NCBI GenBank assembly: GCA_964610775.1
Contig: CAZSZC010000002.1
Span: 33,600-97,599, forward strand
Direction: 5' to 3'
DNA length: 64,000 nucleotides
Origin: an uncultured Candidatus Saccharibacteria bacterium
GTDB taxonomy: Bacteria > Patescibacteriota > Saccharimonadia > Saccharimonadales > JACQNP01
The notes under the pieces are model-generated. The model searched no databases. It was not told where the DNA came from and worked only from the letters and a program-made list of their open reading frames with translations. How positions within the stretch are numbered: position 1 is the first letter of the stretch; each line of letters starts with the position of its first letter. Below are positions 9,491 to 63,791 of this stretch, piece after piece. The translations under genes and the position numbers were made by a program.

Positions 9491-10300
9491 ATGATCCTGA
9501 TACTATTTGTAAGTGTTATTCTCAGTGGCTATACGCCAAGACGCGGCACACTAGCATACGCGACAGAAATGAGCCAACAATCGCTTCTCAATGCAACTAA
9601 CTCTGAAAGAACAAATAACGGTAAAACTACGCTAAAACTAAACAGTACCTTGTCTCAAGCCGCCCAAGCCAAAGCTAATGACATGACAGCAAGGAACTAT
9701 TGGTCTCATAAAACGCCCGAAGGACAAGACCCGTGGGTGTTCTTTAATAAAGTCGGTTATAGTTACCTGAAGGCTGGCGAAAATCTTGCCTACGGATTTA
9801 CGACCAGTCGCGACACCGTTACAGGGTGGATGAATAGCCCTTCGCACAGAGATAATCTTCTTGATCCTGACTTTAGTGAAGTCGGCTTCGGGTACGCAAA
9901 TAGTAGCAATTATAACAAGGCTGGGCAGGAAACAGTTGTTGTGGCCATGTATGGCAACCCTCAAAAAACTACACCAAGCCAACAACAATCCCCACAAACC
10001 CTCGCTGGACCAGAAACTCCTAAACCAACAATTAATCAGCCCGTAACAGCAAATACGACTAGACCAATTACAAGAGTAGAAACTATAACCGGCGGTAAAG
10101 CTCCATGGGCGATGACTGCGATTGGCTTTCTGGCGGGCACCATGGTTATGTTCCTAATGCTGCGTTATGGCTTCCGAATTAAAAAACTCATTGGTGACAG
10201 TGAGAATTTCATACTTCACCACCCACTTATAGACGGAACTCTAGTAGCGCTGGTTGTATTATGTTTAGTTTTATCGAGAACAGTTGGCTTTATTCACTAG
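9491..10300 (+). CDS. membrane-anchored CAP/SCP (PR-1-like) domain protein
   Basis: Start moved to the ATG at 9491 to remove overlap with the TrmH gene. N-terminal TM helix, CAP-domain core (GQDPW...SPSHRDNLLDPDFSEVGFGYA...VVVAMYG), Pro/Thr/Gln-rich linker, C-terminal TM helix. Confidence 0.6.
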   Translation: MILILFVSVILSGYTPRRGTLAYATEMSQQSLLNATNSERTNNGKTTLKLNSTLSQAAQAKANDMTARNYWSHKTPEGQDPWVFFNKVGYSYLKAGENLAYGFTTSRDTVTGWMNSPSHRDNLLDPDFSEVGFGYANSSNYNKAGQETVVVAMYGNPQKTTPSQQQSPQTLAGPETPKPTINQPVTANTTRPITRVETITGGKAPWAMTAIGFLAGTMVMFLMLRYGFRIKKLIGDSENFILHHPLIDGTLVALVVLCLVLSRTVGFIH

Positions 10301-10305
10301 AATAA

Positions 10306-13300
10306 TCAGTTTAATCGTACGTTGTTTGAGCCGACAATATCGCTTATAAGAGCTATATTTTCATCAGATGCCGAAGTTCTTTGAGGCAAGCGAATGGCTT
10401 GACGATCACTATCATTGCCAAGTACTAAAACTACTTCCGTATCACCGGGAGCCGCTGTTATTGTTTCTTTTAAATTAATCAGTTGTTGCGTATCATCACT
10501 AGAGTGCATGCGAATATATATACGTTTTAGTTGTTCCTGAATAGTTTCTTTTTTTGGCATCACCCTTGCTTTTTTTGTTACAAGTTTTTTAGGAGATTTA
10601 CCAGTTGGCTTATATGCGCTTGCCTGTTCAGCCGTAAGTTCTCTTGCATCATCAATAAGTAATTTGGCCTCCTGGGTTAAGTTTCCTTCCTTATCTTTGG
10701 CGGTTATTTTACCTTTCACCAAGACTATATTATCGCGCTCCCAAATACCTAAAGTCTGTTGATAAATGTTAGGAAAGATTATGAGTTCTAGTTCCGAAAA
10801 TGAATCGGCTACTTTAACAAAAGCCATCTTTTGACCGTTTTTTGTGGTAATCTCTTTAGATTCAAGGATAATGCCTCCTATTGTAACTGACTTATTATCA
10901 TGTTCGGGCTTAATTTCACTAATTGGTACCGTCAGCTCAGACAGCATTGCCTCGTAGCTTTGAAGTGGATGTTGACTGAGATAAATACCTAGCAATTCAC
11001 GCTCCCATTGCAGTTGCTCGCGTTCTGGAATCGAAACATCTGGCGACTGTAACAGAAGAGCAGTTTTTACCGATTCGCCAGATACGGATCCGAAGAGGTC
11101 AGTTTGGCCAGAGAGTTTTTGCTTCTGCTCTTTGTTTGCATAAGCCAGTAGAACGTCAAGATTATGCAACAAGAAACTACGGTCATTAAAATTATCGAAT
11201 GCGCCTGACTTTATTAAACTTTCTAAAACCTTACGATTTACCTGCTTTACACTAACTCTCTCAAAAAAATCTTCAAGTGAAGAAAATTCACCTGCTTCTC
11301 TCGCCCTCAGAACCTCCTCCACGGCGCCTGTACCTACATTTTTTATCGCCGCCATGCCAAATCTAATTTGATTAGTCTCTGGCACAACCGCAAACTCCAC
11401 GAACGATTCATTAACGTCTGGTGGTAATACTTGAATACCAATGTGTTTACACTCATTCATTTCAATAGCCAACCTATCTGTATCGTCGTAATCACTAGTC
11501 ATTAGGGCTGCCATAAAGGCGGCTGGATAGTTAGCCTTTAGATAGGCCGTCCAGTAAGCAATGAGTGCATAGCACGAAGAGTGAGCCTTTGGAAATGCAT
11601 AGGACGCAAATGCCTCTAACTGCTTCCAAAAGACTTCCATCGCTTTACGATCTGCACCGACGGTTTTAACAGCACCCTCTATAAACTCGCTTTTAAATCT
11701 AGCTAGTACTTCCGGAATTTTTTTCCCAATACCTTTTCTAAGAGTATCAGCCTGACCACCAGTAAATCCACACATCTCTTTACTGATCTGCATTACCTGC
11801 TCTTGATAGACAATAACTCCGTAGGTATTTGCAAGTGCAGGTTTCATGGCTGGATGTAAGTAACTTATTTCTTTCTCTCCATGTTTCCTAGCAATAAAGT
11901 CATCAATCCACTGCATTGGTCCTGGCCTATAAAGTGCATTCATAGCGATTAAATCGTCAAACACTGTCGGTTTCAACTCTTTAAGGTAGCGTTTCATGCC
12001 AGCCGATTCAAACTGGAAAACGCCAGTTGTGTCTCCGCGCTGAAAAAGCTCAAAAGTTTTATCGTCGTCAAGAGGAATGGCGTTAAAATCTATATCTTGG
12101 TTATAAACCTTTTTGATGATACGCAAAGCATTTTTAATGATCGTTAAGTTAGATAATCCCAGGAAATCCATCTTAAGCAGACCAAGCTCCTCAATAGGGC
12201 CCATTGAGTACTGCGTAGCCACCACCCCCTTCTGTGCCATTTCTAGTGGCACAAACTCTACTATTTTGTCAGGAGCTATAACCACACCCGCTGCGTGAAC
12301 CCCGTGACTGCGAATAGTGCCCTCTAGCTGAACAGCTAGATCAAAGACCTTCTTGGATTGTTCGTTATGTTCATACTCCTGCTTTAAATCAGGGTCATCT
12401 TTTAATGACTTAACCAAGGGTATGTGCCGACCCTGAATGGGGGGTGGGATCATCTTGGCTAAACGATCGGCATCAGCGTAGGGAACTTGAAGTACTCTAG
12501 CTACATCCCTAACAGCATTTCTGGCAGCCATCTTACCAAACGTAACTATATTAGCTACTCTATCTTCACCATATTTGGCTACACAATACTGGATCACTTC
12601 GTCGCGTCTGGAATCTTGAATATCAATATCAATATCAGGCATTGATATGCGATCGGGGTTTAAAAACCGTTCAAATAGCAAATCATACTTTAGAGGATCA
12701 AGTTCGGTAATCTTTAGACTATACGCAATAATCGACCCAGCAGCACTTCCACGACCCGGACCAAATACAATACCTTTATTTTTTCCCCAGTTTATGAAGT
12801 CTTGAATTATCAAGAAGTAGCCATTAAATCCCATACTATCAATGACACCAAGTTCATATTTCGCACGGTCTTGAACGTGTACTGGAATTGACTTCTTAGC
12901 AGAGCTTATTGATAGCTTACTGGTTTTTTCTTCCTCCACACCACCATATCTCCAAGCTAGACCTCGATAGACCAAATCCTCGAGGTGTGTTTTTTCTGTC
13001 TTACCTTTAGGTACCTCAAATTTTGGTATTAATATTTTGCCAAGTTCAATTTCAATATCACACCGCTCGGCAATTTTAGAGGTGTTTTTGATAACTTCGG
13101 GGTGTGACTTGCCCCAACGCTCAATTATTTCAGCTGGGTCTGTCAAGTGTAGTTCCATATCCTTGAGAGACATGCGCTTTTCATCAGATAAGAATGAGCC
13201 AGTCTGTACGCAGAGTAAAACTTCGTGCGCTTCTTGATCCTGATGTGTTAAATAGTGAGCGTCACATGTTAGTACGCAAGGCACTTCAAGCTCTTCAGAG

Positions 13301-47357: not shown

Positions 47358-48116
47358 TTAAGTGACTAAAATATGTGTCATCTCAATAGCAAACCCTACG
47401 ACAATAACACCCATTAAGAGCATAATTACTTGACTATCAAAAAGCGCTCTGTTGGAAGCATGGTCGTGAATATCGGGAATAATATCGCTGAGAGCAATAT
47501 ATAGCAAGAAACCAGCACTAAGCCCAAGCAATACACCTACAGGAAGGGCTTCGGTAGTACCAAGTGAATACACAATGACTGCCACTATCACAGTCGCAAA
47601 ATTACTCAGCATAGTTATTATAAGAGCTCGAGCGCGTGCTAGATTCTTATGTACAAGCAAACCAAAATCAGCTGCGTTATGAGGTACTTCATGAATTGCG
47701 ACTGCGAAAGTTGTAACAATACCGGTTGGAACATTTATCAAAAATGCTGCGGCAATAGCAACCCCATCTAACGCATTATGCATACCATTACCGACGATAA
47801 TGAGCGGTATTGACGGATCGCGTTTACTATCTAAAGACTCATGATTATGATGAAACCAGTCTAGAAACCTCTCGGCCAAAAAAAACAACAATATTCCAAC
47901 CAGCACGGACAGGAGAAGAGTGCTCGAAAGTGAGTATTCTAAGCCATCTTTGAGTAGATCAAGAAACACGGCGGATAGCAGTGCGCCAGCAGCAAATGGA
48001 GTAGCTAAGTGTATAATCTTGCGATTATGTTTAGTACCGATAAACAATAGGATGCAGCCCAACAATGAAAACATCGCACCTAGTGAACTTACTAATATAA
48101 CTTGTTTTAAATTCAT
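47358..48116 (-). CDS. zupT: ZIP-family zinc/metal transporter
   Basis: 252 aa; 8 TM; HEVPHNAADFGLL is the ZIP signature; AAGGAG SD (plus-strand ctcctt 48125-48130) 8 nt upstream of the ATG. Confidence 0.8.
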   Translation of the reverse strand: MNLKQVILVSSLGAMFSLLGCILLFIGTKHNRKIIHLATPFAAGALLSAVFLDLLKDGLEYSLSSTLLLSVLVGILLFFLAERFLDWFHHNHESLDSKRDPSIPLIIVGNGMHNALDGVAIAAAFLINVPTGIVTTFAVAIHEVPHNAADFGLLVHKNLARARALIITMLSNFATVIVAVIVYSLGTTEALPVGVLLGLSAGFLLYIALSDIIPDIHDHASNRALFDSQVIMLLMGVIVVGFAIEMTHILVT

Positions 48117-48156
48117 ACAGTTACTCCTTAAATAGTTTAGATTTTATGGTACTTTT

Positions 48157-48186
48157 TTGCAATTTTGTCGCAATTTATGTTATATT
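48157..48186 (+). promoter_or_regulatory. sigma70-like promoter for zur in the zur/zupT divergent region, containing TTGCAA hexamer palindromes (candidate Zur operator)
   Basis: -35 TTGCAA (48157-48162), 18-bp spacer, extended -10 TGTTATATT (48178-48186), ATG at 48193 (near-leaderless). TTGCAA-like palindromic hexamers at 48157, 48168 (TCGCAA) and 48186. Confidence 0.4.
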
Positions 48187-48192
48187 TGCAAC

Positions 48193-48612
48193 ATGTCTAG
48201 TCAATCATTTATACTTAACAAAATATTAAGAAACAAGGGCTTTAGTAATACTGTTGTTCGTCAAAATATCTTTGAATCACTTCAAGGTAAAGAACCCTTA
48301 ACTATACAAAATATAATATCCTCAAACCCAACAATAGATCGAGCAAGTGTATATAGAACTATTGACCTATTTGAAAAGATTGGGGTTGTACAGAGGTTAC
48401 AGATTGGCTGGAAGTATAAAATCGAATTGACTGATCAGTTTCACGCTCATCATCACCACGTAGTTTGCATAGTTTGCGGTCGCATTGATAACTTCTCCGA
48501 ACCAGATTATGTAGAAACTAATGTTATGCGAGCCGCCAGTAAGCTAGGCTATAAACCAACTAGTCATCAGTTAGAAATACGTGGTCTTTGTCCAGATTGT
48601 CAAACTAAATGA
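48193..48612 (+). CDS. zur: Fur-family metalloregulator, likely Zur
   Basis: Start placed at the ATG at 48193 (caller used TTG 48157, which falls inside the predicted -35). Winged-helix N-terminus, His-rich HAHHHH, two CxxC pairs (CIVCG, CPDC). Divergent from the ZIP transporter gene. Confidence 0.75.
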   Translation: MSSQSFILNKILRNKGFSNTVVRQNIFESLQGKEPLTIQNIISSNPTIDRASVYRTIDLFEKIGVVQRLQIGWKYKIELTDQFHAHHHHVVCIVCGRIDNFSEPDYVETNVMRAASKLGYKPTSHQLEIRGLCPDCQTK

Positions 48613-54999: not shown

Positions 55000-55263
55000 T
55001 TATTTACTTCTTGCCGAATAAAGGGCAAGTTTTCGACGAGCTGCGGCAATACTTGTAGACACAACAATTATGTATAGTAATCCAACTGTGCATGTTTCGA
55101 TCATACGACTATGGTTAGCAAATATGAGATAGCCACCACTTGCAATTGTTACAAATAACAAACTGTAAGAGGTCCTCAGTCGCAAAGTAGTAGGTTTGTT
55201 ATACAATGCCAATGTATAGATTACGCTGGTGATAGCAATAATTATGTGAATCAATAAAATCAT
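55000..55263 (-). CDS. hypothetical small membrane protein (87 aa, 3 TM)
   Basis: Hydrophobic ORF downstream of cyoE; no clear SD, so weak. Confidence 0.35.
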   Translation of the reverse strand: MILLIHIIIAITSVIYTLALYNKPTTLRLRTSYSLLFVTIASGGYLIFANHSRMIETCTVGLLYIIVVSTSIAAARRKLALYSARSK

Positions 55264-55286: not shown

Positions 55287-56141
55287 TCAAGGAATCCAGG
55301 AGTTTATAGACAATATTACACATAAACAAGTTAAAACGATCAGCGAAAAACCAAACATCTTACCTGCCCAAATACGCGTATCGACTACATTGTAGCCCTT
55401 AGCACTTCTATAAAACCATACCACTGACAGGCTGAGCATAACAATTAGATATGTAATCCCCGTATAGCCAAATATTGTTAGTAAAGGAACTGTTAAAGTA
55501 AAAACTATAATGTAGATGAGGATCCTCTTTTTAGTTACTTCCAGCCCCCTGCTTACAGGCAGAATTGGAATACGCGCCTTTTTATAATCTTTAAGTCTGA
55601 AAATACCAACTGCATAAAAATGTGGCATCTGCCAAAAAACTAACAGAAGAAATAGACACAGACTAGCGATGTCAAATCTTCCAGTAAAAGCACAATAACC
55701 TACAACCGGCGGGACTGCTCCTGAGATACTTCCTATTTCTGTACTAAAAACAGTAACGCGCTTGAAATATCCATAGACAATTACATACATAAAAAAACCA
55801 AAAAGTGCGAATATCGTAGCTAGGGTTGTCGTAAAATAACCCAGCATTACTGTTCCTATTATTAATAGAAAAAATGCAAATATTAGGGCGTTGACTACTG
55901 GTACACCACCGGTTGCCAGAGCTCTCTTACTCGTTCTAGACATCTTTTGATCAATATCTTTATCTATGTAGTTATTGCATACACAAGCGGAAGCTATTAT
56001 GCAGCCCAGACCAATTATTACGGCAACCAAAGACTTCCATTCAACATTACCTTGGGCGGCTAGTAGAAAACCAGCTATAGCGGTCATGGCATTACCGCGA
56101 ACAATTCCGGGCTTAGTTAGGCTAGTATATTCTTTCAACAT
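55287..56141 (-). CDS. cyoE: protoheme IX farnesyltransferase (heme O synthase, UbiA family)
   Basis: 284 aa; NxxxDxxxD (NNYIDKDID) and second Asp-rich region, 8-9 TM; divergent from cyoA. Confidence 0.85.
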   Translation of the reverse strand: MLKEYTSLTKPGIVRGNAMTAIAGFLLAAQGNVEWKSLVAVIIGLGCIIASACVCNNYIDKDIDQKMSRTSKRALATGGVPVVNALIFAFFLLIIGTVMLGYFTTTLATIFALFGFFMYVIVYGYFKRVTVFSTEIGSISGAVPPVVGYCAFTGRFDIASLCLFLLLVFWQMPHFYAVGIFRLKDYKKARIPILPVSRGLEVTKKRILIYIIVFTLTVPLLTIFGYTGITYLIVMLSLSVVWFYRSAKGYNVVDTRIWAGKMFGFSLIVLTCLCVILSINSWIP

Positions 56142-56325: not shown

Positions 56326-57231
56326 TTGTCACGAAGTAGTAAAAAATCTAGATCTTCTTTGATCGTAGCAGTTGCTATGTCGATGCTGATTTGTTTTGTG
56401 CTTATTTTACAAGCTCTTCTTCGCGGCAAAAATGTTGCCTTACTTAACCCCAAGGGTCTAATCGCACAACAACAACACAACCTTCTGGTTTTTTCAGTAA
56501 TTTTACTTCTTACGATCGCTATACCAACACTTATTTTTCTTTATTCTACCGCTTGGAAATACCGTGATTCAAGCCCGAGAGCTATACATAATCCAGCTAA
56601 CAATCGTAGCAAATTACTTGTATTAAGCATGTGGCTACTGCCAACCATATTTATGCTTATTCTTGCCAGCGTCATGATACCGGCAACACATAAACTGTCA
56701 CCTCAAAAAACAATTGCCACCGACACCGAACCATTAACAATACAGGTAATATCATTACGCTGGAAATGGTTATTTATCTATCCTGATCAGAAAATTGCAA
56801 CGATTAACTTTGTGCAAGTTCCAATAAACACTCCTGTAACGTTTGAACTAACTGCGGATGAAACTCCCATGAGTTCATTCTGGATCCCAAATATCGGTGG
56901 ACAGTTATACTCGATGACCGGACATGTAAATAGACTAAACCTTATGGCAGAGAAAGCCGGCGATTACACAGGAAGTACAGCAGAAATAAACGGTGCTGGC
57001 TTTGCTGGTATGAGGTTTACAACCCGCGCCAGCAATAACGAAGACTTCGATCATTGGGTCGAAGAAGTAAAGAAGTCTCCTGATATTCTAGACAATGATA
57101 CTTATAGCAACTTGTTGAAACCCAGCGAGAACAATAAGACCGCTTTCTACTCTAATTATAAGGGTGATTTATATGATAAAGTGGTTATGAAATACTCAGA
57201 ACCGAGCGAAGGGCATATGCATCACGAATGA
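56326..57231 (+). CDS. cyoA: cytochrome bo3-type quinol oxidase subunit II
   Basis: 301 aa; two N-terminal TM helices; WKWLFIYP and SFWIPNIGGQ cupredoxin-domain motifs of CyoA (no CuA ligand set). Confidence 0.8.
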   Translation: MSRSSKKSRSSLIVAVAMSMLICFVLILQALLRGKNVALLNPKGLIAQQQHNLLVFSVILLLTIAIPTLIFLYSTAWKYRDSSPRAIHNPANNRSKLLVLSMWLLPTIFMLILASVMIPATHKLSPQKTIATDTEPLTIQVISLRWKWLFIYPDQKIATINFVQVPINTPVTFELTADETPMSSFWIPNIGGQLYSMTGHVNRLNLMAEKAGDYTGSTAEINGAGFAGMRFTTRASNNEDFDHWVEEVKKSPDILDNDTYSNLLKPSENNKTAFYSNYKGDLYDKVVMKYSEPSEGHMHHE

Positions 57232-59318
57232 AAGAACTACTAGTTGGCAATTTGAGTTGGCAAGCATTACCCCATGAATGGTTTACCATCGGTGGTACAC
57301 TAACATTTTTGCTACTCGCACTAATCGTGATTATAGTCATAACACGTACTAAGCGGTGGACTTGGCTTTGGAAAGAATGGCTGACTACAGTTGATCCGAA
57401 GAAAATCGGTATCATGTATTTCATTGCAGGCGGGGCTATGCTCCTTCGTGGCGGACTAGATGCGCTAATGATATGGCTACAACAAGCTCTCTCATCTGGC
57501 AGTTCACACGGATATCTTTCGTCAGACCACTTTCAACAAATTTTTACAGCCCATGGCAACATAATGGTATTTTTTGTGGCTATGGCCTTTATTTTTGGTC
57601 TCATAAACTACATTGTACCTCTACAGATTGGTGCGCGTGATTTAGCATCACCTCTCATGAACACACTTGGGTTTTGGTTGTTTATTGGCGGAATAATAAT
57701 GGTGAACATGTTCTTCCTATTTGGTGGCCAGTATGCGGCAACTGGTTGGCTGGCGGTTGCCCCGCTTTCCGGGAAAGAATTTAGCCCCGGTGTAGGCGTT
57801 GATTATTGGGTATGGAGCTTGATGATATCGGGTATAGGTACAACCCTTGGTGCAATTAATTTCATTATGACAATCCTGAAGATGAGAGCGCCAGGTATGA
57901 AGTTGTTTATGATGCCCCTTTTTACCTGGGGTTCACTTTGTAGCATGGTTATGGCGGTCACAGTGTTCCCATTGCTGACGGCAACACTTTTTTTGGTGTA
58001 CTTTGATCGCGCTCTTGGAACACACTTCTTTACAACCATGGGAGGTGGCGACCCTATGATGTATACCAATCTGATCTGGATGTGGGGACACCCGGAAGTA
58101 TACGTTTTGATTCTGCCAGCTTTCGGCCTATTTTCAGAAGTAGTTTCAACATTTAGCCGAAAAGCTATCGCCAGTTATAAGTCGGCTGTATGGGGTATGA
58201 TTGGCGTTTCGTCACTAGCATTGTCTGTATGGCTACATCATTTCTTTACTATGGGGGCTGGAGCTGATGTAAATTCGTTCTTCGGTCTCATGACCATGTT
58301 GATTGCAATACCGACTTCGGCACTCGTTTTCAACTGGATAGCAACTATGTACAAAGGCAATATACGATTCGACACACCAATGTTGTGGTTTCTCGGATTT
58401 GTTAGCATATTTGCCATTGGCGGCATAACTGGTGTAATGCTGGCTGTGCCGCCAGCAGATTTTCAGTTGCATAATAGCCTATTCTTGGTGGCTCATTTTC
58501 ATTCAACCGTAATTGGCGGGGTACTCTTTGGAGTTTTCTGCGCCTTGTCTTATTGGTTCCCAAAGTTCACAGGCTTTAGACTCAATGAGAGAATTGGTAG
58601 ATATGCATTTTGGTGCTGGTTGATTGGATTCTGTTTGTCATTTATACCCATGTACATATTAGGATTTATGGGTGCTAGCAGAAGGCTCGACCATTACGAA
58701 GCTTCTACTGGCTGGCAGCCATTTTTTATACTAATGCTGATTGGGGGCATAGTTATCGCCATAGGTGTAGCTTTGCAGCTTGCTCAAATTCTAGCTAGTT
58801 TTATAGAAAAGAAGCGGCTTCGCACTACTGCTGACCCTTGGGACGGGCGATCGCTGGAATGGTCAGTTGACTCACCTCCGCCATTTTATAACTTTACGAC
58901 TATACCTCACGTATCGACACGAGATGCATATTGGCAAAACAAGCGACATATTAAGCCGACAAAAGCCAAATACGAGGATATACATATGCCAAAAAATACT
59001 GCAGTCGGTATATATATCTCGATTTTTGGGACGCTTGCATCTTTTGCTTTCGTTTGGGACATAGTCTGGCTTGCAGTGGTATCAATAATTGGTATTATAG
59101 TGACCTTTATTATTCGAGGATTCAATGAGAATTCCGAGTACACACTTGCCGCCGCAGAAGTACAACATATTGAGGAATCCAGATTAAAGGCTGTATCATC
59201 AGCTGGGCCCATCAAAACATACAACAAGGATGAAGACATGGGCTTATTAGATCTTGTTAAATTTATATATGGATTCACTCTAGATTTTATACGTAATAAA
59301 CGGTGGTCATCACAATGA
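57228..59318 (+). CDS. cyoB: cytochrome bo3-type quinol oxidase subunit I (heme-copper oxidase)
   Basis: 696 aa; canonical HCO subunit I His ligands (WGHPEVY, HHFF..., VAHFH); 4-nt overlap with cyoA. Confidence 0.95.
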   Translation: MKELLVGNLSWQALPHEWFTIGGTLTFLLLALIVIIVITRTKRWTWLWKEWLTTVDPKKIGIMYFIAGGAMLLRGGLDALMIWLQQALSSGSSHGYLSSDHFQQIFTAHGNIMVFFVAMAFIFGLINYIVPLQIGARDLASPLMNTLGFWLFIGGIIMVNMFFLFGGQYAATGWLAVAPLSGKEFSPGVGVDYWVWSLMISGIGTTLGAINFIMTILKMRAPGMKLFMMPLFTWGSLCSMVMAVTVFPLLTATLFLVYFDRALGTHFFTTMGGGDPMMYTNLIWMWGHPEVYVLILPAFGLFSEVVSTFSRKAIASYKSAVWGMIGVSSLALSVWLHHFFTMGAGADVNSFFGLMTMLIAIPTSALVFNWIATMYKGNIRFDTPMLWFLGFVSIFAIGGITGVMLAVPPADFQLHNSLFLVAHFHSTVIGGVLFGVFCALSYWFPKFTGFRLNERIGRYAFWCWLIGFCLSFIPMYILGFMGASRRLDHYEASTGWQPFFILMLIGGIVIAIGVALQLAQILASFIEKKRLRTTADPWDGRSLEWSVDSPPPFYNFTTIPHVSTRDAYWQNKRHIKPTKAKYEDIHMPKNTAVGIYISIFGTLASFAFVWDIVWLAVVSIIGIIVTFIIRGFNENSEYTLAAAEVQHIEESRLKAVSSAGPIKTYNKDEDMGLLDLVKFIYGFTLDFIRNKRWSSQ

Positions 59319-59899
59319 CTCATAAAATCGATCACGAGTCAGAAGCTAACGACAGAGCACTTTTCGGGTTTTGGATCTACTTAATGACCGACCTTTTAAT
59401 GTTTGCAGTTCTTTTTGCTGTTTATTCAGTCCTGCACAATAACACAAGCGGAGGAGAAACAGGACGTCAACTTTTCAGTCTACCATTGGCACTTACTGAA
59501 ACTATAATTTTGCTTACCAGTAGCTTCACTTGTGGGATTGGTATGATCGCAGCCCGTCGCGGCAATAAGAGCCAAGTACTACTTTGGTTTGGTATTACCT
59601 TCGCTTTAGGATTAGCATTTTTGAGCCTAGAGCTAAAGGAATTCTCCACACTAATACAAGAAGGTCATACCCTGCGAAGTAATGCATTTATGTCTTCGTT
59701 CTTTGTGCTTCTAGGTACTCACGGTCTTCACATTGCCTCTGGTTTGCTATGGATGGGTACTACCATGGCATTTATCATAAAGCGAGGACTCAATTCACAC
59801 ATGGTGCGCAAGCTTACAATGCTAAGTCTATTCTGGCATTTTCTGGACATAGTTTGGATCTTTATATTTACCATTGTGTATCTGGGGGCATTTGTATGA
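59303..59899 (+). CDS. cyoC: cytochrome bo3-type quinol oxidase subunit III
   Basis: 198 aa; FGFWIYLMTD, GTHGLHI, LFWHFLDIVWIF motifs. Confidence 0.85.
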   Translation: MVITMTHKIDHESEANDRALFGFWIYLMTDLLMFAVLFAVYSVLHNNTSGGETGRQLFSLPLALTETIILLTSSFTCGIGMIAARRGNKSQVLLWFGITFALGLAFLSLELKEFSTLIQEGHTLRSNAFMSSFFVLLGTHGLHIASGLLWMGTTMAFIIKRGLNSHMVRKLTMLSLFWHFLDIVWIFIFTIVYLGAFV

Positions 59900-60582
59900 G
59901 CAAGACCCATCATCATTCAACCACTGAGCACGGAACCATAGTTTCTTACGTAATTGGATTCATTCTATCTTTACTATTCACGTTCATACCTTATTACCTT
60001 GTCGTTAATCAAATCATTACAGGTACCTCACTGCTAATAACTATTGTTGTTTTCGCTTTAATACAAATGGTTATACAAATAACCTTCTTTCTTCACATTG
60101 GCAGAGGGCCGAAGCCGAATTGGAACTTGTTCTTTTTCTTATCAACATTTGTAATCATATTGGCTGTAGTGGGTGGATCAATTTTCATCATGAATAACCT
60201 TCACTACAATATGTCACCAAAAGACAAAATAAAGAAAATAGTCAATGACGAGGGCATATCACAAATTGGGGGCGAACCCACAGGAGCCTGTCAAGAACTC
60301 TTCGATAATCATAGGATAATTATTAAGAACGGCCAGGCCTACCCCTACAGTGTCACGGCAAAAAGATGCGACACACTTACATTTATAAACGAGGACGAAA
60401 CGACACGCGAGATTGCGTTCGGTGAGCACCCATACCATGAATCTTATGCTGGCAGCAGCGAAATTATAATTGTGCGAAAAGGACGAGGCAAAACGATAAC
60501 CCTATCCGAAAACGGAACTCATAAGTTCCACGACCACCTTCACGAAGAGACGGCTGGCGAATTCACCGTAACAAGCGAATAA
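59896..60582 (+). CDS. cyoD: quinol oxidase subunit IV fused to a ~115-aa C-terminal beta-rich (cupredoxin-like) domain
   Basis: Start at the ATG at 59896 (ATGA overlap with the cyoC stop); the caller's upstream extension overlaps cyoC. First ~110 aa has 3 TM helices (CyoD-like); remainder is soluble, with the pattern CDTLTFINEDETTREIAF and a His-rich THKFHDHLHEE stretch. Confidence 0.75.
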   Translation: MSKTHHHSTTEHGTIVSYVIGFILSLLFTFIPYYLVVNQIITGTSLLITIVVFALIQMVIQITFFLHIGRGPKPNWNLFFFLSTFVIILAVVGGSIFIMNNLHYNMSPKDKIKKIVNDEGISQIGGEPTGACQELFDNHRIIIKNGQAYPYSVTAKRCDTLTFINEDETTREIAFGEHPYHESYAGSSEIIIVRKGRGKTITLSENGTHKFHDHLHEETAGEFTVTSE

Positions 60583-60585
60583 GAC

Positions 60586-61128
60586 TTACTGTATTTGCTC
60601 GGCGATTTGCATGAGTTTGCGCAGTGTATTTATGTTGCGAATTGTCATCTGTGAATATAGTTCCGTATTAATCAATCTTGGAACTTTGCTTTTTGACAAA
60701 TTATTACGATCGATATTCCATACTAGGGCACCATCACAATACTTAAGTGTTTCAATGTTTGGATTTACACCAATTTTGTTAAGTATGTTTGAATTATTAA
60801 TATTGTCCTTGAGGAACATTACATCAGTTTTAGTTGCACCATTATTTTCCCAACTAATAGGTATTGAATCATTAATGTAACGAAGTTTATTTAAGCCCAT
60901 AACAACAACTGGGATAGTGAAGCCAAATTCATCATCAATAGCACCTTCAATTTGCATTCTTAACTGCGATGTTGAGCTATCATATGCAGCAAAGACTACA
61001 TTACCGGAATTTATGTAAGTTACTACCTTGTCAAAACCCAAATTCTCAAATAATTTTTTAAGCCTTAGCATTTCAACTCGACTATTGCCTCCAACATTTA
61101 CACCTCTTAGAAATGCGACATAAACCAT
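60586..61128 (-). CDS. DUF1697-domain protein
   Basis: 180 aa; MVYVAFLRGVNVGGNSRVEMLRLKKLFENLGFDKVVTYINSGNVVF is the DUF1697 N-terminal signature. Confidence 0.65.
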   Translation of the reverse strand: MVYVAFLRGVNVGGNSRVEMLRLKKLFENLGFDKVVTYINSGNVVFAAYDSSTSQLRMQIEGAIDDEFGFTIPVVVMGLNKLRYINDSIPISWENNGATKTDVMFLKDNINNSNILNKIGVNPNIETLKYCDGALVWNIDRNNLSKSKVPRLINTELYSQMTIRNINTLRKLMQIAEQIQ

Positions 61129-61137
61129 ACTTATATA

Positions 61138-61797
61138 TTAGTTCTTTTTGTTTGCTTTGTTTTTACCAGAAAAAAGTGACATACGCAGTATCCGCACAGC
61201 CACGGCTATAATCAAAACTATAAAAGTAACTAGTAGTATCAATCTCCAAAATGATTCTTTGAAATCCGTACCGCTGTTAAGAACATGAAATACAACCAAA
61301 ACCATGACTGCATAGCTAATAACATGCGTCCATTTCCACAATCTTTTATGTTTCGATATCCAACCTACCGTATCAAGTGAGCTAAATATGACAACATAGG
61401 CTCCATATGCCGCCAATATACCGGCTGGAATAGCTAAAAGTCCTAGATGCAAGCCAAATAATGATGTGCCGTTCGAGTAGTTCTTTAAAAATGGTACGAA
61501 TATTTGAGCCAAAGAAAAATTAACATAATGATCAGCTAATAATCCTAGCATATGGATAGCGATACTAACAGCCAAAGTTATAGCCATAGCCTTGTGTACT
61601 GACCAAGCTTTAACGGGAGAAAAAAGGCGATAAGTCCAGCCTGTAACATGACCAATACCAGATATCATAAGAAGTACTAATAGGGTTAACGAAACGAGTC
61701 CTGAAGCTCTAATAACATACCAAGCCCAAGAATCGCGAAGTGTTGACGTAACTACTTCTGATGACGATACTGCAAAATATACATAACTAGGATGCAT
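61138..61797 (-). CDS. ferric-reductase-type transmembrane domain protein (MsrQ/NOX FRD-like bis-heme b membrane subunit)
   Basis: 219 aa; 5-6 TM; two His pairs spaced 13-14 residues apart in separate helices (HKAMAITLAVSIAIH; HVISYAVMVLVVFH), as in heme-ligating FRD helices; 11-nt overlap with apbE. Confidence 0.7.
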   Translation of the reverse strand: MHPSYVYFAVSSSEVVTSTLRDSWAWYVIRASGLVSLTLLVLLMISGIGHVTGWTYRLFSPVKAWSVHKAMAITLAVSIAIHMLGLLADHYVNFSLAQIFVPFLKNYSNGTSLFGLHLGLLAIPAGILAAYGAYVVIFSSLDTVGWISKHKRLWKWTHVISYAVMVLVVFHVLNSGTDFKESFWRLILLVTFIVLIIAVAVRILRMSLFSGKNKANKKN

Positions 61798-62710
61798 GTA
61801 TCATGCCCTCCTTCTGATCTATCATATATGAACCGTCTGTATATTGCAGCGCCTTACCGAGTATGGGTTCACTACTTTTACTTTTAGCAAAATCAATGGA
61901 TGAGTTAATCAAAATTGATTTAGCATATACATCGGCCGCTATAGCACTGGAACATACAACAGTAACTGATAAAATGTTGGTGTTAGCAGACCCACCAGTT
62001 CGTGGATCGATTATATGATGCCAATTTTTACCTCGTCGTTTAGTTACGCCAGAGGTTGCAATGGCTATTTTACCAAACTTCTCATTCGTGACTACGGCTA
62101 ATGTCATTTTATTGTCCGAGGCTTTTGCAATCTCAATCTCCCAAGCCTTACCATCAACATCTTTACCGTTGCATATTACGTCGCCGCCAAGAGAAAGCCA
62201 GTAGTTATGAATCTGCTTTTTGTCCAAAATATGCGATAGAGAATTTAGTAAGTAACCCTTGCCAATGCCGCCAAAATCGAGAGCCGTATCATAAGGTATC
62301 ATCGCTAAATCGTTTTTTAGATTAATCATCTCTGCATTTGCTATTTTGCGACCCCTAAGGTCTAGCTTACTATCATATATATCAGGTGCCGGCCACGAAC
62401 CAACATAGCCCGCTTGTTGGAGTGATGGCAAAATAAATGGATTGAAGATACCCCCTGTTAGTTTCGAGTAATACTTAGTCTCTTGTAATAATTTAGTGAA
62501 TTCGGGCGATACCTTCACATTGTGTCCAGATTGTGCATTAAAAAGTGACAATTCACTATCAGGCCTAAACCTACTAAATCGCTGTTCAAAATCATCAACA
62601 TATTGCCATATCTCCAAGAATAGAGAATCAATTTTTACTATCGGATGAACTACTAGAGTAATAACAGCTTCGGAACCGAGCTTGTATTCAATCTGTTGAT
62701 AGCGTTTCAT
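61787..62710 (-). CDS. apbE: FAD:protein FMN transferase
   Basis: 307 aa; FGGIGKGY and ATSGVTKRRGKNWHHIIDPRTG are the ApbE signatures; no obvious signal peptide; 2-nt gap to the upstream gene. Confidence 0.8.
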   Translation of the reverse strand: MKRYQQIEYKLGSEAVITLVVHPIVKIDSLFLEIWQYVDDFEQRFSRFRPDSELSLFNAQSGHNVKVSPEFTKLLQETKYYSKLTGGIFNPFILPSLQQAGYVGSWPAPDIYDSKLDLRGRKIANAEMINLKNDLAMIPYDTALDFGGIGKGYLLNSLSHILDKKQIHNYWLSLGGDVICNGKDVDGKAWEIEIAKASDNKMTLAVVTNEKFGKIAIATSGVTKRRGKNWHHIIDPRTGGSANTNILSVTVVCSSAIAADVYAKSILINSSIDFAKSKSSEPILGKALQYTDGSYMIDQKEGMIHAS

Positions 62711-62711
62711 G

Positions 62712-63791
62712 TTATGAAACCTGTGATCGCGGACTTTGATAACTATTCATCATTGTTGGGCTGCTAGTAGAATTTGCAGAACTTGGGGTTGACGACGAGC
62801 TTGGTGCAGGAGTAATAGGCTGAGCTGGAGCAAGATTATTGTCTGTTGTTGTATTACTAAGAGGTAGGTCATCGTCCTCTTCTGTGCTTTCAGGAATTGT
62901 GGGTGAGATCTTTTTGGTAGTTTGCTGAACTTGTGTACTTGGCTCTAGTGACTGTGCCAGATTTAACTTGTGTTCAATATCTTTAAAGCCTACGCCACTA
63001 ACAAGTACCAAGAAAGCAACAAAACTCAGTGTATAGGCAACCTGAGAAGGAGTAAGTCCAAATACTTTTGAAGATTTTTTCGTACTTGATGAAAAACTCT
63101 CCGTCCATATATTATCTTCGTGCACGCCCATACCGCTCAGGACTTTTGTCATAGAATTCATCATTCCTTCGGGCCCACAAATGTAATAATCGAACTCGTT
63201 GACCCGTTCGCCAACCAGCGAGCTCAAATGACTGTCGTCAATCGGGCCCTTAATATAACCCCTGTTTTCCCCTGGTAGTTTTGATAAGAAAAAATAAGCT
63301 TTTATCTTAGGATTATCGTTTACTATCTGCCTTATGTCTTCCTCATAAGGTATGTCACTCATGTCACGACAAGCATAAAGCAATGTTACCGACCGGTCAG
63401 AGTGGTCTATCTCTGTGGTACGCAACATACTAATGAACGGTGTTATACCTATACCGCCAGCCATCAAGACAACACTTTTATCATCTTCGTGTAGCACAAA
63501 GTCTCCATAGGGTCCCTGTACCTTAATATCATCACCGGTTTGTGAACTTGCTAAATCTCGAGTAAAATCCCCAGTTACTCTAAAAGCAAATTCTAGTACT
63601 CCGGCTTGGTTTGATATGCTCGTAAACGACAAACATCGAACAGGAGACCAGTGATTATTTCTTTTAATCGATAAAGTAGCGTACTGACCGGCCCAAAATA
63701 CCATCTGATCACGAGACGTCTCCGGCTTCAAAGTTAATACTACGTAACTACCTCTTTTATCTACGTTATAAACTTTATATTTATTCATCAT
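62712..63791 (-). CDS. FNR/Fre-like NAD(P)H:FAD oxidoreductase with C-terminal TM anchor and extracytoplasmic Ser/Thr/Pro-rich tail
   Basis: 359 aa; FAD motif RCLSFTS, GPYG, NAD(P) motif VLMAGGIGITPF, YYICGPEGM. Then KKSSK plus TM helix (VAYTLSFVAFLVLVSGVGF), then an ~85-aa low-complexity P/S/T/acidic tail. Confidence 0.7.
   Translation of the reverse strand: MMNKYKVYNVDKRGSYVVLTLKPETSRDQMVFWAGQYATLSIKRNNHWSPVRCLSFTSISNQAGVLEFAFRVTGDFTRDLASSQTGDDIKVQGPYGDFVLHEDDKSVVLMAGGIGITPFISMLRTTEIDHSDRSVTLLYACRDMSDIPYEEDIRQIVNDNPKIKAYFFLSKLPGENRGYIKGPIDDSHLSSLVGERVNEFDYYICGPEGMMNSMTKVLSGMGVHEDNIWTESFSSSTKKSSKVFGLTPSQVAYTLSFVAFLVLVSGVGFKDIEHKLNLAQSLEPSTQVQQTTKKISPTIPESTEEDDDLPLSNTTTDNNLAPAQPITPAPSSSSTPSSANSTSSPTMMNSYQSPRSQVS

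Follow-up and report, generated by a model that had tools for sequence, protein, structure and literature searches.

Two described proteins come closest to the system reported here. AcoP, a cupredoxin anchored in the membrane, binds to a haem-copper oxidase and keeps that enzyme active; it has been proposed to preserve the metal centres of the oxidase and/or to pass electrons (PMC10804444). FtrB binds Cu2+ via Asp (D118) and His, without type-1 ligands (PMC11966278). Other extracytoplasmic beta-sandwiches, Cox11/CtaG and PCuAC, are often encoded in oxidase operons and deliver copper to CuB/CuA, Cox11 being membrane-tethered (PMC6696091, PMC10588857); the copper motif of PCuAC is H(M)X10MX21HXM (PMC6696091), and the route of copper insertion into the CuB of bo3 oxidases has been stated to be unknown (PMC10588857). 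We analysed a bo3 quinol oxidase locus in a stretch of 64,000 nucleotides (hereafter the window) from an uncultured Candidatus Saccharibacteria bacterium (assembly GCA_964610775.1, contig CAZSZC010000002.1, positions 33,600 to 97,599 of the forward strand). At this locus, oxidase subunit IV, CyoD, continues within the same protein into a conserved linker and an outward-facing domain with the cupredoxin fold, the cupredoxin-like (CUP) domain, an arrangement found in one lineage of ultra-small Saccharibacteria.

AcoP is close to CUP in its build and in the type of its partner, although it has a real type-1 site, and FtrB is close in having no type-1 site. Like AcoP, the stand-alone relatives of the CUP domain combine a membrane anchor, here N-terminal, with a single cupredoxin domain on the outer face. 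AcoP differs in that its green type-1 site is complete, with Cys, His and Met ligands, whereas CUP has no such site; its partner is the aa3 cytochrome c oxidase of an acidophile, whereas that of CUP is a bo3 quinol oxidase; and, unlike CUP in the fusion, it is not joined to an oxidase subunit. FtrB/Cup-II (8VUK) shares with CUP a cupredoxin fold that lacks the His-His-Cys type-1 set, but the two have no detectable sequence similarity, and FtrB belongs to the ftrABCD iron transporter rather than to cyo. Equivalents of the FtrB Glu triad and His121 are not conserved in CUP, where the His three residues after D213 is variable, and the four-histidine pattern of CUP has not been described for FtrB. 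Cox11/CtaG, PCuAC and Sco belong to other families, none of which was matched in Pfam at E<=0.1, and the sequence lacks CFCF, which is the copper motif of Cox11, as well as H(M)X10MX21HXM and CxxxC.

A cupredoxin-fold extension of CyoD

The fusion gene, cyoD-CUP, occupies positions 59896..60582 of the forward strand, from an ATG at 59896 to a TAA at 60580-60582, and encodes 228 amino acids plus stop; it is supported by the open reading frame and its sequence, by 726 homologues, and by an independent gene call of a homologue. Its ATG overlaps the stop codon of cyoC (ATGA), and it is therefore the fourth and last gene of cyoABCD. Residues 1-106 (59896..60213, forward strand) form the CyoD part, with three transmembrane helices (15-37, 43-68 and 74-104), the N terminus inside and the C terminus outside. 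Residues 12-106 match the CyoD equivalog TIGR02847 at 89.5 bits against a cut-off of 81.45, and the CyoD part scores 46.6 bits against PF03626 (cut-off 28.9). E. coli CyoD (109 aa), which is homologous to this part, has the same three helices and the same position in the operon, ends right after helix 3, opposite residue ~106 of the fusion protein in the alignment, leaving 122 additional residues. The usual CyoD is a single domain of ~100-110 aa, a size to which the 228-aa protein does not conform. The cytoplasmic N terminus of CyoD (59896-59937) is rich in His (MSKTHHHSTTEHG), as in E. coli (MSHSTDHSGASHG), and E11 and G13 are nearly invariant in the family.

Saccharibacterial CyoD differs from that of E. 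coli by an added DEGIxQ tail and, in the lineage of the window, by a whole cupredoxin domain as well. Short, unfused Saccharibacterial CyoD proteins end in ...DEGIxQ, which is the beginning of the linker in the fusion. This linker (residues 107-137; 60214..60306, forward strand) consists of a helix (108-119) followed by DEGIxQxGGxxTGAC, with an invariant Cys132 at 60289-60291. We considered the 'TGAC' of the linker as a target for flavinylation by ApbE and rejected it: it resembles [ST]GA[ST] but ends in Cys, and stand-alone members of the family do not have it.

The remaining domain (residues 138-226; 60307..60573, forward strand) has eight beta-strands, and its assignment draws on structure prediction, structure comparison, and Pfam and PDB profile matches. 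In an AlphaFold2 model of the fusion protein, made from an alignment of 80 sequences, the predicted local distance difference test score (pLDDT) of the domain is 86-98, except in the loop 181-190, where it is 70. Foldseek comparison with the PDB returned amicyanin, plastocyanin, pseudoazurin and purple cupredoxin at template-modelling (TM) scores, normalised to the target, of 0.70-0.79 and a probability of 1.00, with amicyanin and plastocyanin as the best matches. The family profile matches amicyanin by sequence (E=5e-4), and the extension matches Pfam Cupredoxin_1 (PF13473) at E=1.6e-5 to 9e-5 and 22.9-25.3 bits, just below the cut-off of 27 bits; one stand-alone member reaches 19.7 bits against the same cut-off, and many homologues carry precomputed PF13473 matches. 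These results bear out the earlier note, which had read the gene as CyoD fused to a folded, C-terminal, cupredoxin-like domain and had placed about 115 residues beyond the normal end of CyoD.

The domain was also expected to be extracytoplasmic, and the predicted topology agrees. The only loop of the CyoD part with positive charges (K/R) is loop 69-73, between helices 2 and 3, and the N terminus of E. coli CyoD is cytoplasmic; together these place the CUP domain outside the membrane. Given this location, Cys132 probably forms a structural disulfide with Cys158 (60367..60369, forward strand), an invariant residue that is kept in fused and stand-alone proteins alike. A membrane protein of the VKOR family is encoded near CUP or cyo genes in three of the loci described below, and such a protein could make the disulfide of the CUP domain, using quinone.

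A protein of this kind might arise from a frameshift or from stop-codon read-through joining cyoD to a downstream gene, and the earlier note had asked for a check of the frame near 60230. The reading frame is unbroken across the junction between CyoD and the extension. A search of about 5.8 billion proteins with the full-length fusion protein found the 726 homologues, and the best 120 of these are all full length (212-271 aa, 61-99% identity, 92-100% query coverage), showing that the extension is conserved among orthologues; those with names belong to Saccharibacteria, Saccharimonadales or Patescibacteria, and many carry precomputed matches to both PF03626 and PF13473. In more than 120 homologues, drawn from many samples and assemblers, the junction, ...NMSPxDxxKKxxNDEGIxQxGGxxTGAC..., contains no gaps, and its NDEGIxQxGGxxTGAC part is conserved across the 726 homologues. 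On a 777-kb contig, independent gene calls gave a 226-aa product with PF03626 and PF13473. It is true that the two parts are separate genes in other lineages; however, where they are separate, CUP lies upstream of cyoA with an anchor of its own and not downstream of cyoD. Because the junction is conserved and the same product was called independently, we regard frameshift and read-through as excluded, with a vanishingly small residual chance of an artefact.

A lost type-1 site and four conserved histidines

To map the copper ligands, 337 domain sequences (128 fused and 209 free) were aligned to the profile with hmmalign, together with amicyanin. Arg171 (60406..60408, forward strand) stands at the position of amicyanin His53, the first type-1 His ligand, and is Arg in 86-91% of the sequences. 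Asp213 aligns to amicyanin Cys92, the type-1 Cys ligand; the position of the second type-1 His is a variable Gln/His (216), and that of Met is Thr/Val (219). With Arg in place of His, Asp in place of Cys, and the other two positions variable, the domain has no type-1 copper site. The description of the domain as cupredoxin-like holds for its fold, but the classic ligands are absent, and it is not a blue copper protein. That identity was tried as a candidate and ruled out by the ligand mapping, since the set His...Cys-x(2-4)-His-x(2-4)-Met is missing. The plastocyanin profile TIGR02656 scores 13.9 bits, far under its cut-off of 87.85.

Other positions are strongly conserved in both fused and free sequences: C132, H139, C158, D159, N165, D167, R171, F175, G176, H178, H181, Y184, G186, E189, L203, G207, H212, D213, H214, G221, F223 and V225. 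Four of these are histidines arranged in two pairs. The first pair, H178-P-Y-H181 (60427..60438, forward strand), lies in the loop after strand 4 and is conserved at 94-96% in both subfamilies; the second, H212-D213-H214 (60529..60537, forward strand), encloses Asp213, with D at 99% and H at 95-97%. All four histidines are present in 310 of the 337 sequences, while 14 have none or one and 13 have two or three. Independent loss at ~5% per site would predict far fewer than one sequence lacking all four. Conserved together and lost together, the four histidines behave as one functional unit. Mutual information across the alignment was dominated by the split between fused and stand-alone sequences and was informative only on this co-loss. 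Asp213 is retained even in members without the histidines and is therefore probably structural. The HKFHDHLHE stretch that the earlier note had put forward as a possible binding site for Cu or Zn is thus retained in part: H212, D213 and H214 are conserved, but H209 is usually Tyr/Phe and H216 is Gln or His, and the candidate metal site comprises H178, H181, H212 and H214 rather than the whole His-rich stretch.

In nitrite reductase (His135-Cys136, His100) and multicopper oxidases (HCH, HSH, HxH), the non-blue coppers are bound on one face of the fold by residues on either side of the Cys position and by others just beyond the strand of the first ligand. The HxxH and HxH pattern of CUP appears to resemble these sites, with shifted spacing and insignificant sequence similarity. 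In the type-1-less domain 1 of multicopper oxidases and in the type-2 site of copper nitrite reductase, His residues flank the type-1 Cys position (HCH/HSH; here HDH), and, as in CUP, more His residues lie on the strand or loop that follows the first ligand position; the sites of these enzymes lie between two domains and comprise 3 to 8 His, and the upstream pair in CUP is shifted by 4-5 residues. Local matches to the laccase motifs 'GTFWYHSH' and 'HCH' were not significant (E about 0.7-1). We infer a type-2-like metal site that is made up of these four histidines and most likely binds copper.

Stand-alone relatives and the genomic link to cyo

The CUP domain of the fusion belongs, as one branch, to a larger family that has not been studied and occurs mostly in Saccharibacteria; most members are anchored stand-alone proteins of ~135 aa. 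When 1.84 billion cluster representatives were searched with a profile built from this domain only, 1191 matched at E<=1e-3, of which 302 reached E<=1e-10. Lengths of 125-145 aa, with the domain at the C-terminal end, predominate among the 150 CUP proteins listed. Among the stand-alone proteins with a complete N terminus, 142 of 143 have a hydrophobic N-terminal segment, preceded in 136 by Lys/Arg, indicating that the free proteins are anchored in the membrane with the domain outside. One of them, P0144, was modelled with AlphaFold2 (pLDDT 92): residues 2-34 form the anchor helix, after which comes the beta-sandwich seen in the fusion. In Foldseek this model matches the same PDB folds and, in addition, FtrB 8VUK (TM 0.75, root-mean-square deviation 2.6 A). 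In public databases these proteins are labelled 'hypothetical protein', 'plastocyanin' or 'cupredoxin domain-containing protein'. Of the 128 fused domains, 120 group together as a single clade by neighbour joining. The simplest history starts from an anchored partner of the oxidase that already existed; in one lineage it was attached to the C-terminal end of CyoD, with loss of its original anchor. We hold the structural and evolutionary part of our explanation with a confidence of about 0.9.

The genomic neighbourhoods of CUP genes were examined by a scan of one genome per species, which used a profile from 21 sequences and the pattern CDTLTIxNxD, so that the loci retrieved are biased towards one part of the family; open reading frames in these loci were scored with profiles built in this analysis. 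The scan gave 53 loci, nearly all from Saccharibacteria metagenome-assembled genomes: 5 with a fusion, 1 with a fusion and a free copy, 17 with a free CUP gene at cyo, and 30 with a free CUP gene and no cyo gene in the stretch retrieved. Thus 17 of the 47 loci with stand-alone CUP only (36%) are located at cyo genes, compared with ~1% of genes expected within 6 kb of a given locus in a genome of ~1 Mb. The usual order in the 17 loci is CUP-cyoA-cyoB-cyoC-cyoD(short)-cyoE-sm85, where sm85 denotes a small membrane protein described below; in some, CUP is divergent from cyoA. Two further stand-alone CUP genes, chosen solely for their long contigs, both lie directly upstream of cyoA by independent gene calls. 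The presence of free CUP genes at the cyo operon makes the fusion a Rosetta-stone version of an existing oxidase partner. In locus L049, a stand-alone CUP gene (9933-10380) is found 3.6 kb downstream of a fused cyoD-CUP, and fused and free forms can therefore coexist.

For a sample that did not depend on CUP, we took 80 metagenome loci picked through CyoC. Eight of these carry the fusion and, with CyoC identities of at least 71%, are the loci most closely related to the window; five have a free CUP gene nearby. In 23 of the 80, at least 1.5 kb upstream of cyoA and at least 2.5 kb downstream of cyoD were available, and within this full-flank subset 2 loci were fused and 3 had an adjacent CUP gene, with none in the retrieved stretch of the other 18. 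The association is far above chance from the side of CUP but loose from the side of cyo.

By Pfam, the 113 neighbouring genes include redox and quinone functions (FAD-linked oxidase, NDH-2, polyprenyl synthase, VKOR and ferric-reductase-like proteins), along with others such as VIT1 and MMPL. A recurrent 'aerobic island' accompanies Saccharibacterial cyo in nine named loci and others, with genes for NDH-2, a 554-aa FAD-linked oxidase and a polyprenyl synthetase; in one of these islands (L135) there is also a Ni-superoxide dismutase.

The other subunits of the oxidase of the window are likewise encoded on the forward strand. CyoB (57228..59318) is 53% identical to its E. coli counterpart and retains the quinol-site residues R71, D75, H98 and Q101, as well as H106, H421, H419, H284, H333, H334, Y288 and E286, so that the quinol site and the haem and CuB ligands are intact. 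CyoA (56326..57231), identified by COX_ARM and COX2 matches, is 39% identical to E. coli CyoA and has STAEINGAGFAGM where CuA oxidases have Cys. Because CyoA lacks the CuA cysteines and CyoB has the CuB histidines, this is a normal quinol oxidase whose sole copper is CuB. CyoC is encoded at 59303..59899 (PF00510). In the lineage with fused CyoD, the C-terminal tail of CyoA is rich in His (EGHMHHE, GHMHHGAHHE; 57190-57228 in the window, and six related loci), a feature that is mostly not found elsewhere; His residues also occur in the C-terminal region of E. coli CyoA.

Divergent from cyoA, on the reverse strand, is cyoE for haem O synthase (55287..56141; PF01040 UbiA, E=4e-51), which holds the same position in related loci. 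It is followed on the same strand by sm85 (55000..55263), which encodes an 87-aa membrane protein recognised by synteny and by BLASTP matches to nine locus proteins. Proteins of this type (84-100 aa) follow cyoE in most Saccharibacterial cyo loci, and a Pfam scan of sm85 gave no match; sm85 may serve the oxidase as a small subunit or an assembly factor that has not been described before. Beyond cyoD-CUP, a run of four genes convergent with cyo encodes a DUF1697 protein (60586-61128) and, on the reverse strand, a 219-aa membrane protein that has no Pfam match and contains two pairs of histidines, HX13H and HX12H (61138-61797), an ApbE flavin transferase (61787-62710), and an FNR-like protein that binds FAD/NAD and has both a membrane helix at its C-terminal end and a tail rich in Ser/Thr/Pro (62712-63791). 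The cluster of FNR-like, ApbE and membrane proteins begins 0.6 kb downstream of cyoD-CUP and looks like a split transmembrane electron module of the NOX/ferric-reductase-like kind; relatives of its FNR part adjoin stand-alone CUP genes in loci L001, L030 and L031. Further away (47358-48612), a 252-aa membrane protein lies beside a 151-aa protein that by eye is like a Fur-family regulator, and the two may be a metal-uptake pair. The window holds no second copy of CUP, and a motif scan of it for copper-trafficking proteins (CopA, CopZ, Sco, PCuAC, CopC/D) found none.

Possible roles of the CUP domain

We propose that the outward-facing four-histidine site, tethered to the oxidase, would capture copper and would hand it to the CuB of CyoB, or keep CuB loaded, and would thus act in assembly or maintenance much as Cox11, PCuAC or AcoP do. 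Our confidence in a tethered extracytoplasmic copper site that would supply or maintain CuB is tentative, at a probability of roughly 0.35-0.4. The proposal is supported by the fusion and the operon position, which tie CUP to an enzyme with one copper, and by the build of the free form, an anchor with a beta-sandwich outside, which may be likened to that of Cox11 and AcoP. FtrB adds a precedent for Cu2+ binding by a cupredoxin that lacks type-1 ligands (PMC11966278), and for bo3 oxidases no route of copper insertion has been described that would already fill this role (PMC10588857). Deletion of cyoD in E. coli reportedly impairs the incorporation of CuB, a finding that is said to come from Saiki et al. 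in 1996. Several observations weigh against the proposal. The Met/Cys motifs typical of Cu(I) chaperones are absent from the fusion sequence, and copper-trafficking families are absent from the 25 commonest Pfam families of the 113 neighbours. In 30 of the 47 loci with stand-alone CUP only, there is no cyo gene within the retrieved stretch; conversely, the 18 of 23 full-flank loci without CUP within 1.5-3 kb upstream of cyoA or 3-6 kb downstream of cyoD show that CUP is not an obligatory partner in cis, and this looseness on the side of cyo counts against the proposal as well.

The same site could instead be a redox-active or catalytic copper centre, serving as an extra entry or exit point for electrons at the outer face, for instance together with NOX/ferric-reductase-like transmembrane electron carriers, or scavenging reactive oxygen species beside the oxidase. 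Redox proteins make up most of the neighbours of stand-alone CUP genes: in L030 and L031, CUP adjoins a protein of the NOX type (Ferric_reduct, FAD_binding_8 and NAD_binding), an FNR-like protein and a membrane protein lie between two CUP genes in L001, and the window has its own FNR-like/ApbE/membrane-protein cluster just downstream, although this reductase neighbourhood is limited to few lineages. Mycobacterial respiratory supercomplexes carry a membrane-anchored Cu-superoxide dismutase on their outer face, and the HxH around the former Cys recalls the HCH/HSH of multicopper oxidases, without significant similarity. However, there is no type-1 site for fast movement of electrons, and a Ni-superoxide dismutase gene is present in a related island. 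CyoB has an intact quinol site, and the same islands encode NDH-2 and the FAD-linked dehydrogenase, which provides a normal route through quinol; this speaks for the arrival of electrons by that route and weakens CUP as a point of electron entry. On balance we consider a redox or catalytic role unlikely. A working type-2 copper centre that would provide the oxidase with another active site, this one facing outward, removing superoxide and other reactive species or exchanging electrons with NOX/ferric-reductase-like proteins or external donors, seems to us distinctly unlikely.

Two other explanations dispense with copper. Were CUP a metal-free structural module, it would stabilise the oxidase from outside or dock a component of the envelope or the host, and its histidines would serve for contacts or pH sensing. 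Cupredoxin folds without metal are known, the CuA-less domain of CyoA among them; Arg and Asp have taken the place of the type-1 site; and the linker is as conserved as the domain, suggesting that it packs against the complex. This explanation sits poorly with four histidines that are kept at 94-97% in sequences otherwise ~45% identical, and that are lost together, as is typical of a metal or catalytic site, and we give it only a small chance. Smaller still is the chance that the site handles iron or haem, either as an Fe2+ oxidase like FtrB or as a receptor for scavenged haem in bacteria that are unable to make it and yet require it for the oxidase. We know of no haem-binding cupredoxin. The model of P0144 does match FtrB 8VUK, which lacks type-1 ligands and oxidises Fe2+ (PMC11966278), VIT1 iron transporters and ferric-reductase-like genes are among the neighbours, and Saccharibacteria encode only the last haem-modifying step (PMC6031116). 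Yet a sequence match to FtrB is absent at E<=10, the equivalent of FtrB His121 is variable and is Gln in half of the fused proteins, and neither the Ftr1/EfeU permease nor haem transporter families are among the 25 commonest neighbour families.

Published work on Saccharibacterial cyo describes cyoABCDE, the missing synthesis of quinone and haem, and 'a blue-copper protein' or extra open reading frames (PMC6031116, PMC8407418), and an extended CyoD is not mentioned there. The earlier note supposed that such a domain on an accessory subunit had not been described, and we found no published description of the fusion; the domain itself is not unique to the fusion. A metabolic reconstruction of Patescibacteria from 2025 treated single-domain 'plastocyanin' genes as electron carriers (PMC12931201). 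If those proteins belong to the CUP family, that assignment needs to be re-examined.

The finding defines a sizeable family with the cupredoxin fold and without a type-1 site, represented by the 302 matches at E<=1e-10. If the site were a second active site, CyoD-CUP would be an accessory oxidase subunit with its own chemistry, and the domain would be a natural single-domain cupredoxin carrying only the 'non-blue' copper site that is otherwise known from multi-domain enzymes. CUP also adds a component to the aerobic island of Saccharibacteria, alongside cyo, NDH-2, the FAD-linked dehydrogenase, polyprenyl synthase and Ni-superoxide dismutase, an island whose role in respiration or in oxygen removal is still debated (PMC6031116, PMC8407418). 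In these bacteria, gene order in many genomes, and in one lineage a covalent fusion, tie a candidate metal-binding domain to the bo3 oxidase, and because their genomes of ~1 Mb encode few other copper enzymes, the question of how CuB obtains its copper is directly testable.

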